Virus genome (UHGV): UHGV-0155057
DNA length: 10,202 nt
Direction: 5' to 3' (one strand)
Origin: a virus
Part shown: positions 2,513-7,637 of the stretch, piece by piece
How the letters are laid out: each line of letters starts with the position of its first letter
How positions within the stretch are numbered: the stretch's first letter is position 1
Notes under the pieces: generated by a model
Seen by the model: only the letters and a program-made list of their open reading frames with translations
Told to the model about the DNA's origin: nothing
The model's database searches: none
Translations under genes and position numbers: made by a program

Positions 2513-4501
2513 CAACGCATCAGACTTAGCCCCCTGCGTCAGAGCGTTAATTGCCTTTTGTGCCTGCTGCATTGCTTTCTCAAAGGCTGTTGATCCGCGT
2601 GGGGTGTTTGCCATTCGGAGCATTGCATTTCTGAATGGTTCGCTCTCATAGGCGCGAGTAAGAAGTCCGTAGCTTACTGCTGCGCCAGTTGTCGCTGGGT
2701 TCATTGCCGTCCCATACCCAATAATGAACGGGATAGTTTGCTGCCCTGTAGGTGTTGTTACTGCCGCTTTTGCAGCCTGCTGCGTGGATTGCAGGTAGTT
2801 TTTTAATCCATTCAGATAAGCAGCGTCCTGCCCCTTAAATGTGATGCCAGTCTGGTTTTGCAGGATGTTAAGCTGCCGAAGGAACTGGTCAGGGGAACCA
2901 CCTGATTTCTCCATCGCCTTTCCAATGATGCCATTGCGCATTTGCGCCCTGCCAACACGACCAACTGAGTTATACAGAGTCTTAATTTCCGATTTGTTCT
3001 TGCTGAATAGCATGTTGTTGACAACTTCTGGCGTCAGATCGCCTTTCATGAGAACATTCTTCAGCCTGGTATTCTTGAGTTTCGCTGCTTCGTCAGCATA
3101 GACGGCATTGGCCTGCTGATATTTACGGAGAGTATCGTTGCCAAGATTCTGACCAATGGCACCATTGATATCGTCGGTCATTGCCTTGTAAACGCGCTGA
3201 ATGGCAGCATCGGAACGGTTTGGTAACACTGGTCGCTCACCCTTCACGTCCATTCTGAACTGGCTGCGCAGATCGCTTAATTGCTTCAAATCCAGATTTA
3301 CCGGACCATCAGGACCAGCATTGCGAACAAGCTCATCACGATAGGACTGAAGTTTTGAAATAGTCTCGTTATCAGCAACCTTACCAAGCTTCTGCAGGTT
3401 AGATATTTCTGTATCAATCTGCTGAATTGCTCTTGCAGGCTGAATGTTTATTCCCGCCATAGCATTCTGAACCTGCTCCAGTCGATTTCCTGCAGCGCGA
3501 CGAATTCCTGATGTTTTCGCTTTAAGGCTGTCAATAACAACCGCTGGATCATACTCACCGAATTTATCAGCAAATCTCTGAACCAACTGGCTTCTCGCTT
3601 CCTGTTGCGTTGCTCTCATTCCGCTTGTGCCAGCCAGGGGGATATTTTCTGCTGTCGTTTGCGCCATTTTTCCGACGCGGGAAGTAGGCTGTAACAGGTC
3701 GGTGGTGTGCAGAGGCACTCCTTCACGCTCTGCAAATCTGATAGCTTGCTGCGCTTCTGGTGCAATAGCACCACGAACGCCACGATAAGCAGCGCCTAAT
3801 CCACGTCCGGCAGCGTTAATAGCGCCGCCAGCCAGAACGCCAACGCCTAAATCGGTAGCGAGTGCTTCCGCATCATCTTTCGCACTATTTGCAGCAAGTG
3901 ACCCGACTGCGTTTTCAGCGAGAAGGCGAGTTGCACCCTGAGCGATTCTACCAGCGAGTGTTGGTGCCTGTGTTGCCGCTCTCTCAATGCCAGCAGGAGT
4001 GAGGTAAGGCAATGCCTCAGAAAATACCCTGCCCTCTGTAGTTTGTGGAGTCAGCGCGCCTTGCTGAAGGCCAAAGTCCTGCTCTAATCCCTGCGTTGTT
4101 ACTCGTGGCGCTGGGTGATATGTCCCATCGCCAATTCCGAGTTTACCGCCAGCCCAAGCCGCCGCGCTTGTTACAGCATCGGCAACTGATGCAGGTATGT
4201 TTGCCACGTTCACGCCAGCCTGCACCAGTCCGCGACCAGTCTCTTTTACTGCTTCACCAAGATCAGACATAAATCCACTTTGCTGTGGTTGTTGCTGTGC
4301 TACTGGTTGTTGTGTCTCCACTGGCTGCACAGATGGCAATGGATAGGCAGCATAGAAAGCTTGCTTAGCCTGCTCTGCATTTTCTCCGGCTTGCGGGGCA
4401 ACGACTTCATTGAAGTATTGCTCCTGAGCCTGCGCTTTTTGTTCTGGTGCTAACGCCTGATACTGTGGAGAGGCGATAACATCTTTCCATGCTTTAGCCA
4501 T
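2504..4501 (-). CDS. Phage ejection (DNA-transfer/injection) protein, P22 gp16-like by synteny (665 aa)
   Basis: Long minus-strand ORF with an Ala/Gly/Gln-rich composition typical of podovirus ejection proteins. It is the last late gene before the mnt/tailspike region, the position of gene 16 in P22. Its start overlaps the upstream stop as TAATG (complement of 4499-4503), indicating translational coupling. Confidence 0.65.
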   Translation of the reverse strand: MAKAWKDVIASPQYQALAPEQKAQAQEQYFNEVVAPQAGENAEQAKQAFYAAYPLPSVQPVETQQPVAQQQPQQSGFMSDLGEAVKETGRGLVQAGVNVANIPASVADAVTSAAAWAGGKLGIGDGTYHPAPRVTTQGLEQDFGLQQGALTPQTTEGRVFSEALPYLTPAGIERAATQAPTLAGRIAQGATRLLAENAVGSLAANSAKDDAEALATDLGVGVLAGGAINAAGRGLGAAYRGVRGAIAPEAQQAIRFAEREGVPLHTTDLLQPTSRVGKMAQTTAENIPLAGTSGMRATQQEARSQLVQRFADKFGEYDPAVVIDSLKAKTSGIRRAAGNRLEQVQNAMAGINIQPARAIQQIDTEISNLQKLGKVADNETISKLQSYRDELVRNAGPDGPVNLDLKQLSDLRSQFRMDVKGERPVLPNRSDAAIQRVYKAMTDDINGAIGQNLGNDTLRKYQQANAVYADEAAKLKNTRLKNVLMKGDLTPEVVNNMLFSKNKSEIKTLYNSVGRVGRAQMRNGIIGKAMEKSGGSPDQFLRQLNILQNQTGITFKGQDAAYLNGLKNYLQSTQQAAKAAVTTPTGQQTIPFIIGYGTAMNPATTGAAVSYGLLTRAYESEPFRNAMLRMANTPRGSTAFEKAMQQAQKAINALTQGAKSDALSE

Positions 4502-5616
4502 TAATCACCCCATAGTGAAGAAAAGTTACTGCTGGCTGCTGGCTGTGATACCTGTGCAGGTTGAGATTGCTGCCGCTGAGATTTACCAACATTAACGTTA
4601 TATTGTTGGTTGTAATTGTTGGTGTATTCCTGAATCTCACGAATCGACTGCTGCATAGCCTCCGGGCTTGAATAGTCAACCTGCGGCATCCCCTGAAAAT
4701 ACATCTTCGCTTCTGCAACGGTGTTAATACCACTGGCACCCATGTCCCTTGCTGCTGCCACCCCCTGATTCTGCATTCTTCCCTGAATACGTTGTGCTGA
4801 GTTATATAACTGGCGCTGCTCTTTTCCTGTTAATCGGCTGCGAACATCAGCACCAATTGCCGGGTTACCTGCACCGCCTGTCATTCCTGTCATGAAATCG
4901 AGAGCAGAAGCGTCTGCATTTGCGATCGCGTCGATATCCTTCTTCATGGCATAGTTTTGTGCTGATGCAGACGATGTTGCAGGCGCTGCGATTGAACTGG
5001 CAGGAACGCGAACCATATTCCCCTCGTTGTCGATGCCTTCGTAGAACGCATTAGCCCCAGCGCCGTGAAGTTTCCCGCCTACCGTTACAGTTCTGCCATC
5101 TGATAACTGAACTGTACGCTCATCATTACCAGCGGTTCCTCTTGTTGACGCTCTCTGCATTGCCAAATCCTGCCCGCGTCGCGCAGTAGAAGCAGATAAA
5201 TCCTGACCGCGCATCGTGATGTTCTGACCTCGTGCTGTTAGCGCCTCGCCAGCCTGATTGCTGCGGATTGTCTCTGCAAGTTTTCCGCGATCAATCTCAC
5301 GCCCAACGATTCTGTCTTGCGCCTGAAAATATTGTTCTGGACCAAGAGCAGCCATTCCAAGGTGATCAACAAACTCACCAAATCCTGAAGGATTCTGCTG
5401 ATACATCTGAGCAACGTTATTAGGGTCAACACCGACGCGAGTCAGTTCCTTGGCGTTGTTTTGCAGCCATGATTGCATTGCTTCTGGAGACGATGACGCA
5501 AGGCGTGCGCCAGCCGCTAAGGTGCCGATAGAATTACGCTGGTCTTCATCAATGAATCCCATGCCTTTACGAACGGATTCAATCTGGTCTGGATATTGAG
5601 TAGCCAACTGACGCAA
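4501..5616 (-). CDS. Phage ejection protein, P22 gp20-like, apparently 5'-truncated (likely gene remnant)
   Basis: The minus-strand frame is open only up to 5640 (in-frame stop at complement 5641-5643). The track start at 5616 is TTG and no ATG follows until codon 19. The longest possible product is about 379 aa against roughly 430-470 aa remembered for gp20 homologues. Its 3' end is coupled to the gp16-like start. Assignment is by synteny and composition only. Confidence 0.5.
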
Positions 5617-5640
5617 AGCACCGCGATGGCAAGGTGTGGG
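5604..5640. other. Putative deletion/recombination junction where a 5'-truncated late gene meets a 5'-truncated early-left gene head-to-head
   Basis: The plus-strand recombinase frame opens only at 5604 (in-frame TAG at 5601-5603) and the minus-strand gp20-like frame closes at 5640. Both genes lack their expected N-termini and the two open frames overlap within this 37 bp. Confidence 0.5.
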
Positions 5641-6254
5641 CTATGGTGCTGGCTTATGTCACGAACCGGGCAATCATGAAACGCCTGGACGATGTTTGTG
5701 GCAAAGCAGGATGGCGCAATGAATACCGCGACATTCCCAACAACGGCGGCGTTGAATGCGGCATATCAATAAAGATTGATTCCGAATGGGTAACCAAATG
5801 GGATGCTGCTGAAAACACGCAGGTAGAAGCCGTCAAAGGTGGTCGTTCAGGTGCAATGAAGCGCGCTGCCGTTCAGTGGGGAATCGGTCGGTATCTGTAT
5901 AACCTTGAGGAAGGTTTCGCACAAACATCTCTCGACAAAAAGCAGGGATGGCACAGGGCAAAACTCAAGGATGGAACAGGATTTTACTGGCTCCCTCCAT
6001 CGCTGCCAGGCTGGGCAATCCCAGCATCAGATAACAAACCATCACCAGAAAATACCAACCAGAAATCTCCATCGGTTGACTGCGAGCAAATCCTGAAAGA
6101 CTTCAGCGATTATGCGTCAACAGAAACTGACAAGAAAAAACTCATCGAGCGTTATCAGCGTGACTGGCAATTAATGGCTGGCAACGAGGAGGCGCAGGCT
6201 AAATGCGTTCAGGTAATGAACATCAGAGTTAACGAACTAAAACAGGCGGCATAG
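5634..6254 (+). CDS. Rad52/Sak-family single-strand annealing protein (phage recombinase), apparently N-terminally truncated
   Basis: Contains [21 protein letters not shown] and [23 protein letters not shown], which I recognise as the conserved core of Rad52-like phage annealing proteins. The frame opens only at 5604 and roughly 25-35 N-terminal residues appear missing. Possible starts are GTG 5634 (track) or ATG 5643, which has AAGG 8 nt upstream. Confidence 0.6.
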
Positions 6255-6770
6255 ATGGCAAGCAGAGGCGTAAATAAGGTGATCATTATTGGTCGCCTTG
6301 GGCATGATCCAGAAATCAGATATTCACCATCAGGAACGGCATTTGCAAACCTTACAGTTGCTACGTCAGAACAATGGCGTGATAAGCAAACTGGAGAGCA
6401 AAAGGAGCAGACGGAGTGGCACCGTGTGGTAATGAGCGGGAAACTGGCAGAAATTGCCAGCGAATATCTGCGAAAAGGCTCTGAGGTTTATCTTGAAGGA
6501 AAATTGCGGACAAGAAAATGGCAGGATCAAAGCGGACAGGATCGGTTCACTACCGAAGTTATCGTGGGCGTTGGTGGAACCATGCAAATGCTTGGTGGCA
6601 AGCAAGGAAGCAATGAACAGTCTTCACCTCAGCGAAATAACGGCCAGCAACAAAGACAGCAATCTCAGCAGCATGGGAATCACAGCGAACCACCTGTGGA
6701 TTTTGACGACGATATACCCTTTGCGCCAGTAACTCTCCCCTTCCCTCGTCACGCTATTCACGCAATTTAA
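6255..6770 (+). CDS. ssb: Single-stranded DNA-binding protein (SSB) with a 15-residue extension beyond the canonical C-terminal DDDIPF
   Basis: [98 protein letters not shown]...DFDDDIPF closely matches E. coli SSB across the OB fold and acidic tip. The ATG at 6255 directly follows the upstream stop. The ORF continues as [15 protein letters not shown] (6723-6767) before TAA at 6768-6770. Confidence 0.9.
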
Positions 6771-6778
6771 GGACTTAC

Positions 6779-7327
6779 ATGAATCACTTGATGGTTGACC
6801 TTGAAACAATGGGCAACGGGCCATACGCGCCTGTTATTTCTATTGGGGCGGTATTCTTTGACCCGAATACCGGAGAAACAGGAGAAGAGTTCTCGGTAAA
6901 TATCTCGCTTGAGTCATCAATGCGATATCGGGCGCGTCCTGACGCTTCAACGATTTTATGGTGGATGGAACAGAGTGAAGAAGCCAGAAAATCGCTAACC
7001 AGCAACACTCAAGAGCTTTCAACGGCTCTTTCATGGTTATCTGAATTCATCATAAAGAACGCTAACCACAAATTCGTTCAGGTTTGGGGGAATGGAGCAT
7101 CATTTGACTGCGTTATTCTCCGAAACAGTTATTCGCTGACAGGGCAGCCAGTTCCGTGGCAGTGGTGGAATGACCGCGACGTAAGAACAATCGTCGAACT
7201 TGGGAAGGTAATAGGATTCGACCCTAAGCGAGATATGCCATTCAAAGGAACTCGCCACAACGCGCTTGATGATGCCATTCACCAAGCCAAATACGTTTCA
7301 GCGATCTGGAAAAAGTTAGCTAAATAA
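6779..7327 (+). CDS. DEDDh-type 3'-5' exonuclease (DnaQ-like fold), 182 aa
   Basis: Exo motifs are readable: MVDLETMG (Exo I, D-x-E), VWGNGASFDCVIL (Exo II) and TRHNALDDAIHQAKY (Exo III, H-x3-D). AAGGA RBS sits 6-7 nt upstream of the ATG at 6779. Confidence 0.8.
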   Translation: MNHLMVDLETMGNGPYAPVISIGAVFFDPNTGETGEEFSVNISLESSMRYRARPDASTILWWMEQSEEARKSLTSNTQELSTALSWLSEFIIKNANHKFVQVWGNGASFDCVILRNSYSLTGQPVPWQWWNDRDVRTIVELGKVIGFDPKRDMPFKGTRHNALDDAIHQAKYVSAIWKKLAK

Positions 7328-7343
7328 TCAACAGGAGAAAACC

Positions 7344-7637
7344 ATGCCAGCGCCTCTGTATGGTGCGGATGACCCGCGCCGCTGTTCCGGCAATTCCGTA
7401 TCGGAGGTGCTGGATAAATTCAGAAAAAACTACGACCTGATAATGTCGCTACCGCAGGAAACGAAAGAGGAAAAGGAATTTCGCCATTGTATATGGCTTG
7501 CAGAGAAAGAAGAACGCGAGCGAATTTACCAGACATCAATCCGACCATTCCGCAAAGCCACATATACCCACTTCCCTGAAATTGACCCGCGCCTGCGTAA
7601 TTACCGCTCACGCTATGGCGCTATCAGTAATGACTGA
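7344..7637 (+). CDS. Hypothetical early-left accessory protein (97 aa)
   Basis: ATG at 7344 with AGGAG 7 nt upstream. Charged, protein-like composition, same strand and tightly packed with its neighbours. No family recognised. Confidence 0.6.
   Translation: MPAPLYGADDPRRCSGNSVSEVLDKFRKNYDLIMSLPQETKEEKEFRHCIWLAEKEERERIYQTSIRPFRKATYTHFPEIDPRLRNYRSRYGAISND

Follow-up and report, generated by a model that had tools for sequence, protein, structure and literature searches.

A conserved peptide tail beyond the internal DFDDDIPF tip of a lambdoid prophage SSB, shared with unrelated proteins of Gammaproteobacteria mobile elements

In the textbook view, the free C-terminal Phe of SSB serves universally as the handle by which more than a dozen proteins of genome maintenance bind. 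The partners of SSB bury this residue, and a basic lip on them anchors the alpha-carboxyl group (PMC10164576). In phage T7, the tails of the SSB and of the helicase-primase share one polymerase site (PMC12339929). The SSB-2 protein of phage HK620 (HkaK) has the tail NDYPPF, which stimulates the cognate annealase Sak4 (PMC5928155). According to a 2025 survey, the lambdoid 'SSB-1' group has been without experimental study (PMC12315714).

The DNA analyzed here, called the window below, is the whole stretch of 10,202 nucleotides of the UHGV virus genome UHGV-0155057. Its ssb gene and the surrounding features are listed below.

4501-5616, minus strand: gp20-like ejection gene, 5'-truncated, which meets the truncated annealase gene at the junction
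5617-5633, no strand: junction left by the deletion in the prophage remnant; the BLAST match is interrupted at about 5627/5628, and the genes on both sides are truncated
5634-6254, plus strand: single-strand annealing protein gene of the Rad52/Rad22 family, 5'-truncated (Pfam PF04098 match from profile position 29), abutting ssb
6255-6770, plus strand: ssb, 171 aa plus stop, a bacterial-type SSB of the lambdoid recombination module ('SSB-1')
6255-6590, plus strand: OB-fold DNA-binding and tetramerisation domain, residues 1-112 (PF00436 match, pN/pS 0.15)
6591-6698, plus strand: Gln/Pro-rich disordered linker, residues 113-148 (pLDDT about 30, pN/pS 0.49, length variable among homologues)
6699-6722, plus strand: acidic SSB-Ct tip DFDDDIPF, internal, residues 149-156, read directly from the sequence (pN/pS 0.046)
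6723-6767, plus strand: post-tip tail of 15 residues, residues 157-171 (in 116/120 closest homologues, pN/pS 0.17)
6768-6773, plus strand: TAA stop of ssb (6768-6770) overlapping the AAGGA RBS (6769-6773) of the next gene, read from the sequence
6779-7327, plus strand: DnaQ-like 3'-5' exonuclease, Rv2179c-like (Pfam PF16473, E=3e-73), with its ATG at 6779
7344-7637, plus strand: Abc2 anti-RecBCD protein (Pfam PF11043, E=6e-65)

The window SSB resembles E. coli SSB, whose SSB-Ct reads MDFDDDIPF, in having a homologous OB fold, a disordered linker and an identical DFDDDIPF. However, E. coli SSB ends at the Phe, whereas the window SSB has 15 conserved residues beyond it, so the basic-lip contact cannot form as described. 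The gp2.5 and gp4 proteins of T7 have one C-terminal peptide common to SSB and primase/helicase, and the same sharing was found in Mydovirus phages. The T7 tails end in an aromatic residue without a post-aromatic extension, whereas the tip and tail described here extend past it, and lambdoid phages of the window type, unlike T7, encode no polymerase or gp4-like helicase. HK620 SSB-2 is, like the window SSB, a phage SSB encoded beside a single-strand annealing protein, but it has a different SSB fold, a terminal tip and no tail; the tailed SSB instead pairs with three annealase families. Phages Sf6 (gene 27/gene 26) and ES18 (gp48/gp47) have the same locus and the same ssb allele as the window, with 98% identity in Sf6. 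In Sf6 an endonuclease cassette splits the gene and in ES18 the tip is free and tail DNA is absent, whereas the window ssb is unbroken and tailed.

The ssb product matched Pfam PF00436 (E=2e-38 over residues 6-105) and phrog_44 (E=3e-69), and its OB fold was 78.6% identical to that of E. coli SSB over that domain. The ssb genes of Sf6, ECP1 and HZ41 had 97-98% nucleotide identity to the 516-nt gene of the window. The tip codons at 6699-6722 (GAT TTT GAC GAC GAT ATA CCC TTT) encode DFDDDIPF, and the tail codons at 6723-6767 follow directly (GCG CCA GTA ACT CTC CCC TTC CCT CGT CAC GCT ATT CAC GCA ATT). The Phe of the tip is thus not C-terminal and its alpha-carboxylate is not free; 15 codons lie between it and the stop. 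A preliminary description of this DNA had reported that the frame continues for 15 residues past DDDIPF, and both its coordinates and its peptide were exact, with no stop after the Phe codon. It had also proposed an alignment with related ssb genes, in which the stop was located exactly 15 codons past the Phe in every tailed relative examined; the extension is therefore not a chance read-through. A Met-to-Val change unique to the window SSB lies directly ahead of the tip. The AlphaFold2 model of the SSB had a mean pLDDT of 53, with values below 40 in the tail and about 30 in the linker, and contained no ordered tail.

The gene order of Rad52-like annealase, ssb, DnaQ-like exonuclease and abc2 places the gene in the lambdoid 'SSB-1' position, as a homologue of the Sf6/ES18 SSB. 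Full-length relatives of the annealase have 231-235 aa. The genes between the ejection gene and the annealase in P22-like phages have been lost, which we take to amount to about 25-30 kb on the assumption of the standard P22 gene order. E. coli EC24 contains an independent, similar remnant. The decay of this prophage is real, and it is unrelated to the tail.

The identical tail was found in the viable phages mEp235, epsilon34, HK75, ECP1 and HZ41, and in mEp235, mEpX2, epsilon34, g341c and HK75 it is attached to far more diverged ssb alleles. In a database of 5.8 billion proteins, 116 of the 120 closest homologues carried the tail; these came from Escherichia, several Klebsiella species, Citrobacter and Salmonella, and their tail consensus was [AS]P[VI]TLPFPRH[ATV][IVM][HY][AV][IL]. 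A degenerate DNA pattern of the tail matched at least 120 IMG/VR viral contigs, all with the SSB tip, then the tail, then a stop at codon 15. These contigs have no host names, and named records of phages, plasmids and genomes served to infer the host range. When one genome per species was searched with a tail-only pattern, matches were confined, apart from apparent chance matches, to Enterobacteriaceae (Escherichia, Citrobacter, Enterobacter, Lelliottia, Kluyvera, Buttiauxella and Pseudescherichia). The context was always tip, tail and stop, or a fusion to an endonuclease ORF, and the other matches were chance-like. The 48-nt tail segment was present in 404 of 5426 complete E. coli genomes. 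Since the DNA patterns fixed some tail residues, invariance at those positions is partly built in, and the set of 120 homologues and the pN/pS values are less biased.

These records bear on the simplest explanation of the extension, namely that it arose by an error of sequencing or assembly, or by loss of the stop codon as the prophage decayed. The window prophage is indeed a deletion remnant, and the unique Met-to-Val change beside the tip fits such a history. Against this, hundreds of independent records of phages, prophages and plasmids have the tail, some of them from isolated phages that are viable; its length is fixed, and purifying selection acts on it. The sequence error considered in the preliminary description is refuted by the identical tail in these records. 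Its second suggestion, a lost stop in a decaying prophage, was correct as to the remnant and wrong as to the stop, given the viable phages and the selection on the tail. The extension is conserved in related intact phages, the finding that the same description had said would exclude error and decay, and we assign this explanation next to no probability. The accompanying statement that most phage SSBs end at DDDIPF also needs correcting, because a large share of the SSBs encoded by Gammaproteobacteria mobile elements is tailed.

Selection was estimated as pN/pS summed over 21 pairs, with K. aerogenes, K. variicola, a metagenomic contig, Salmonella Agona and Citrobacter as the diverged lineages. 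The values over these pairs were 0.150 for the OB fold, 0.488 for the linker, 0.046 for the tip and 0.168 for the tail. The tip value was the lowest in the protein although the tip is internal, and the tail value was close to that of the OB fold at a tail pS of 0.47. The 40 nt past the ssb stop were unrelated among the diverged lineages. Because synonymous sites vary while the amino acids are kept and the DNA past the stop is unrelated, these values show that purifying selection acts on the tail at the peptide level and that the internal tip is under the strongest constraint in the protein.

The strong constraint on the tip despite its capping was unexpected under a simple inactivation by capping.

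At the DNA level, 44 of 44 tail bases were identical between phages whose ssb bodies differed by 20-25%. In a sliding comparison of the window with mEp235, the upstream annealase and the tip, tail, exonuclease and abc2 were 95-100% identical, and the ssb body (OB fold and linker, about 6264-6700) was a swapped divergent allele with 45-82% identity. A DNA-level role of the tail was rejected on this pattern, in which both flanks are 95-100% identical and the ssb body alone is swapped. The tail DNA contained no Rfam family, promoter, terminator or unusual RNA fold (folding z-score -0.03). A general 'boundary sequence' of lambdoid mosaics was also rejected, as the 48-nt segment is restricted to the ssb locus.

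The tail is not confined to this ssb lineage. Among SSB-family cluster representatives, about a dozen had an internal tip and a short extension. With a DDIPF-APIGL pattern, at least 120 more viral contigs were matched; their tails comprised 62 distinct sequences, almost always of 14-15 residues, such as APIGLPYPRHAIYVI, APIGLMYPRHLINVV, APIGLPFPRHALHAL and APIGLQYPALLMCM. The consensus of the distinct 15-residue tails was A-P-[IV]-[GT]-L-[PQM]-[FYH]-[PG]-[RK]-[HLN]-x-[IL]-[HYN]-x-[IL]-COOH. The length distribution peaked at 15 and 14, and positions 12 and 15 were I/L. The window tail opens with A-P-V-T-L right after the P-F of the tip, in agreement with the family start A/S-P-[IV]-[GT]-L; its centre F-P-R-H agrees with the aromatic-[PG]-[RK]-[HLN] segment, and its 15 residues with a terminal Ile agree with the length of 14-15 residues and the aliphatic end of the family. 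Its nearest relative on an unrelated body was the tail APIGLPFPRHALHAL of a phrog_743-type SSB. By sequence, the window tail is clearly a member of this post-tip tail family, which was defined in the present analysis.

The family was found on at least seven protein bodies unrelated by BLAST (phrog_44, 743, 112, 239, 4477, 2544 and 24909). The SSB-type bodies were the classical SSB (phrog_44), phrog_743, which is weakly DUF669-like, and a Gp2.5-like SSB/annealing protein (phrog_112); phrog_4477, 2544 and 24909 are of unknown function. A T7-gp4-like primase/helicase of Mydovirus ends with DDDTPF-APIGLQYAKHAIYVI, and a 407-residue SSB-like protein of the same phage also has the tip and tail. The tailed helicase was present in at least 30 Vequintavirinae records. 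In KB57, a close relative, the helicase ends exactly with DDDTPF and a stop, which is a second natural polymorphism between a free and a capped tip. The carriers of the family included temperate phages, virulent phages, phage-plasmids and conjugative plasmids; 132 plasmid records had the tail, of which 101 were predicted to be conjugative. The conjugative-plasmid variant IGHGYGVCRKAIYAIS retains the R-x-A-I-Y-A-[IL] half alone. A search with the C-terminal region of P0261 gave no matches, and the MGLGYDTARSAIYAL variant consisted of one representative and a similar conjugative-plasmid tail. A pattern for one 11-residue peptide gave no viral matches, and the canonical tip was the sole match in the PDB sequence search. 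These comparisons indicate that the tip and tail are a portable two-part C-terminal module on unrelated ssDNA-handling proteins of Gammaproteobacteria mobile elements.

The boundary between tip and tail is also a site of endonuclease insertion. The ssb match was broken by about 450 bp in Sf6, IME10, N7, CurroJimenez and Huey. In Sf6, gene 27 (ssb) ends at a recoded NFDDSDIPF and a stop, followed by the HNH endonuclease gene 26, and the gene 26 ORF ends with 14 tail residues. In a search with gp26, the usual end of this HNH family was WHKHNKPIY plus a short variable tail, and within the family the 14 tail residues were restricted to copies inserted at ssb. A second HNH lineage, 47% identical, splits ssb at the same codon and supplies NFDDEIPF and a stop. 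Because the HNH family has no such tail outside ssb, the tail is the SSB's own, with homing-endonuclease cassettes inserting exactly at the Phe|Ala boundary. An origin of the tail as a deletion scar from an endonuclease was rejected for the same absence of the tail outside ssb. When E. coli genomes were sampled at even intervals, ssb carried about 73% of the tail segments and an endonuclease ORF about 27%. The ES18-type loci have a free tip and a different HNH gene, and when checked for a remnant of tail DNA they contained none beyond chance. Free-tip alleles are viable in Sf6, IME10, N7 and ES18 for the SSB and in KB57 for the helicase, so the tail is dispensable for plaque growth. The module is also carried by rV5 gp209 and a Pseudomonas phage protein, and in both a zinc-finger/HNH gene begins inside the tail-coding DNA.

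This association could mean that the tail DNA is mainly a homing site or co-conversion tract and that the peptide is tolerated. HNH genes lie between tip and tail in Sf6, IME10, N7 and the 47%-identical lineage; they start within the tail DNA in rV5 and PsgM04F, and an endonuclease gene is directly downstream of the tailed gene in K54_rec4, GAP31 and KE23. The endonuclease cassettes furthermore carry a recoded tip. However, most tailed genes, including that of the window, have no endonuclease nearby, and the free synonymous variation in a tail whose amino acids are kept is the opposite of a constraint on a DNA target. Endonucleases that target a conserved coding motif explain the association better, and a tract with a tolerated peptide is highly improbable.

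The tail is a genuine, ancestral and selected C-terminal motif, as established by its existence, conservation, selection, portability and on/off polymorphism. For its function, we propose a portable docking peptide by which partner choice is redirected, with a probability of about 50%. The tail would remove the free alpha-carboxylate of the terminal Phe, which is the anchor for the 'basic lip' of canonical SSB partners. Because this contact would be abolished, generic docking to the host hub would be lost or weakened. Instead, a single partner common to the tailed proteins would recognise the tail specifically, in trans, as a docking peptide. Since the bodies are unrelated, docking within the same protein is unlikely and recognition in trans most probable. 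Three annealase families (Rad52, ERF and Sak4-like) were found ahead of tailed ssb genes, and an exonuclease, Abc2, an endonuclease or an unknown gene was found downstream. With three annealase families, no single phage neighbour can be the partner, and because the phage-encoded neighbours vary, a host-encoded partner would be the most economical and the most likely one. Altered partner recruitment was the third reading offered in the preliminary description, and it is the direction to which the evidence points. The tails shared by SSB and helicase-primase in T7 are a precedent for such docking, and HK620 is one for an SSB tail that drives its annealase. Against the docking model stand the viable free-tip alleles, the strong constraint on a capped tip and the lack of an ordered tail in the structure model.

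Two more local roles were considered. The tail as an adaptor for the adjoining annealase was weakened by the three unrelated annealase families that precede tailed ssb genes. That the tail docks onto the body that carries it is unlikely with bodies so unrelated, and the AlphaFold2 model was uninformative on this point.

The tail might instead be a mere mask of the Phe carboxylate, with which the SSB would coat ssDNA without recruiting ExoI, RecJ, RecQ and PriA, or while starving them, and so protect recombination and replication intermediates. The canonical docking mode does require a free alpha-carboxyl group, and two unrelated proteins each have natural alleles whose switch from free to capped lies exactly at the Phe|Ala junction. 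However, a steric block needs only a few residues of any sequence, not 14-15 residues with about 10 positions conserved across large evolutionary distances. The tail is too conserved, and is on too many unrelated proteins, to be a mask alone; masking also accounts neither for the tip and tail on a primase/helicase nor for the strongest constraint falling on a capped tip, and we consider it unlikely. Cleavage after Phe156 would free the canonical tip, which would account both for tip conservation and for the working free-tip alleles, and a ClpX-like C-terminal tag would likewise give a timed control of the SSB. The extreme C-terminus of the tails is always aliphatic with basic residues ahead, and it resembles the end of MuA, where RRKKAI-COOH is a documented ClpX degron. 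The likeness is limited to 2-3 residues, as the window tail ends with R-H-A-I-H-A-I and matches RRKKAI in the final A-I and one Arg. It is also hard to explain why virulent phages would tag an essential primase/helicase and SSB for degradation; no protease was associated with the loci examined, and SSB processing had no precedent in the literature searched. A degron or pro-peptide is thus distinctly unlikely. The beta-clamp-binding motif is Q-L-x-L-x-[LF], and the tails have a similar hydrophobic spacing in P-V-T-L-P-F and P-I-G-L-x-[YF]. In place of the Gln, 50 of the 54 distinct 15-residue tails have Pro, so the tails do not match the motif, and the resemblance is a lead only.

Beyond the docking peptide, we tentatively suggest that tip and tail together form a private address label, fitted to whatever ssDNA-binding protein or helicase-primase an element employs, and that this label may dock the element's proteins onto, or inhibit, one host factor that the free-tip SSB of the host engages differently. 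Such a label would be an element-specific second layer of the hub, possibly toggled by the homing endonucleases at the boundary.

An SSB-Ct interaction motif with a conserved and portable post-tip extension appears to be new, on a protein that is otherwise a bacterial-type SSB in every respect. The only prior trace was a remark in the Sf6 record for gene 26, '14 contiguous amino acids identical to E. coli SSB protein'. The literature searched, including full text, held no description of the tail, although subscription journals may hold one, and the accessible reviews and papers on plasmid SSBs did not mention it.

Tails of this kind should not be marked as frameshifts or lost stops in annotation. 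The natural isogenic pairs with free and capped tips, namely Sf6 versus ECP1 or HZ41 and KB57 versus K54_rec4, make the question of their function directly testable. The Phe handle of SSB is internal in many phage and plasmid proteins, and these are widespread. If the tail selects a partner, these proteins would show how mobile elements join the SSB hub of their host or shield themselves from it, which would bear on recombineering, in which the matching of annealase and SSB tail limits portability, on the establishment of plasmids after conjugation and on the sensing of phage SSBs by defence systems.

The prophage in the window was found to be a deletion remnant, with its junction at about 5617-5633, within the region 4501-6254. 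Two truncated genes met at this point:

Lower-coordinate side of the junction at about 5617-5633, minus strand: gp20-like DNA-ejection gene, 5'-truncated
Higher-coordinate side of the junction, plus strand: Rad52/Rad22 annealase gene, 5'-truncated

Between the gp20-like ejection gene and the annealase gene there are usually genes for the virion, lysis, replication and immunity. Because the truncated forms of these two genes abut, that whole set is absent from the window prophage. A similar remnant, independent of this one, was found in E. coli EC24. Among public records, enterobacterial prophage sequence was also present in contigs named as Chryseobacterium sp. 18061 and as an Actinomycetes MAG (L161 and L154), where it is probably contamination.

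The ssb body (6264-6700) was 45-82% identical to that of phage mEp235, with flanks at 95-100%. By this comparison, the body of the window's ssb is a mosaic allele that has been swapped relative to mEp235, with crossover points in the first ssb codons and in the tip region. Just before the tip, in the stretch corresponding to EPPMDF, the window carries GTG (Val) at 6696-6698, a codon that is ATG (Met) in 57 of 58 distinct related genes. This Val may reflect drift in a defective prophage. An imperfect tandem repeat of 9 nt (CACGCTATT / CACGCAATT) makes up the last six codons of the tail (6750-6767) and accounts for the peptide HAI-HAI. The IPF codons of the tip also resemble the LPF codons of the tail (ATACCCTTT / CTCCCCTTC). 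This likeness hints at an origin by local duplication.

C-terminal variants were also seen at the following loci:

Plasmid pSA20141895.1, 3542-6434: conjugative-plasmid SSB with variant tail, and topoisomerase gene
Klebsiella phage KB57, 1-1557, and phage K54_rec4, 518-2581: Mydovirus primase/helicase pair

The plasmid SSB carried a variant post-tip tail of 16 residues (IGHGYGVCRKAIYAIS), and a type IA topoisomerase gene lay immediately downstream. In E. coli, the known partners of the SSB tip include topoisomerase III. The KB57 primase/helicase ended in a free tip, exactly DDDTPF-stop; its close relative in K54_rec4 continued with APIGLQYAKHAIYVI after the tip, and an HNH gene came next. In the public records, a primase/helicase fragment of K45PH128C2 (1496-2584) is labelled 'ribonucleotide reductase small subunit', and a classical tailed SSB gene of Vibrio phage 1.016.O (about 1460-2081) lies unannotated beneath a minus-strand 'TMhelix' ORF.

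Endonuclease genes were located at the tip and tail DNA of several loci:

Sf6, 1501-2463: zinc-finger/HNH homing-endonuclease insertion in ssb
L162/L163 (comparison loci), 2024-2968: zinc-finger/HNH homing-endonuclease insertion in ssb
rV5, 2644-2672: endonuclease gene start within tail-coding DNA
Pseudomonas phage PsgM04F, 2647-2675: endonuclease gene start within tail-coding DNA

The ssb insertions belong to two lineages, 47% identical to each other, which share one insertion point at the exact tip|tail codon boundary. Each lineage supplies a recoded tip and stop, and both end their own ORF with the 14 tail codons and stop that they borrow. In L162 the annealase gene and ssb were additionally separated by an inserted HNH_3 gene. 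Chimeric ORFs in which endonuclease fragments are fused either to SSB or to the exonuclease encoded downstream (P0144, P0173, P0180, P0183, P0131 and P0134) are evidently deletion derivatives, showing how the inserted endonuclease genes decay. The rV5 and PsgM04F endonuclease genes are read in a different frame from the upstream module-bearing gene in whose tail DNA they begin. Since they begin there, their position suggests that the conserved tip/tail coding sequence is a homing target of these endonucleases across very different phages.
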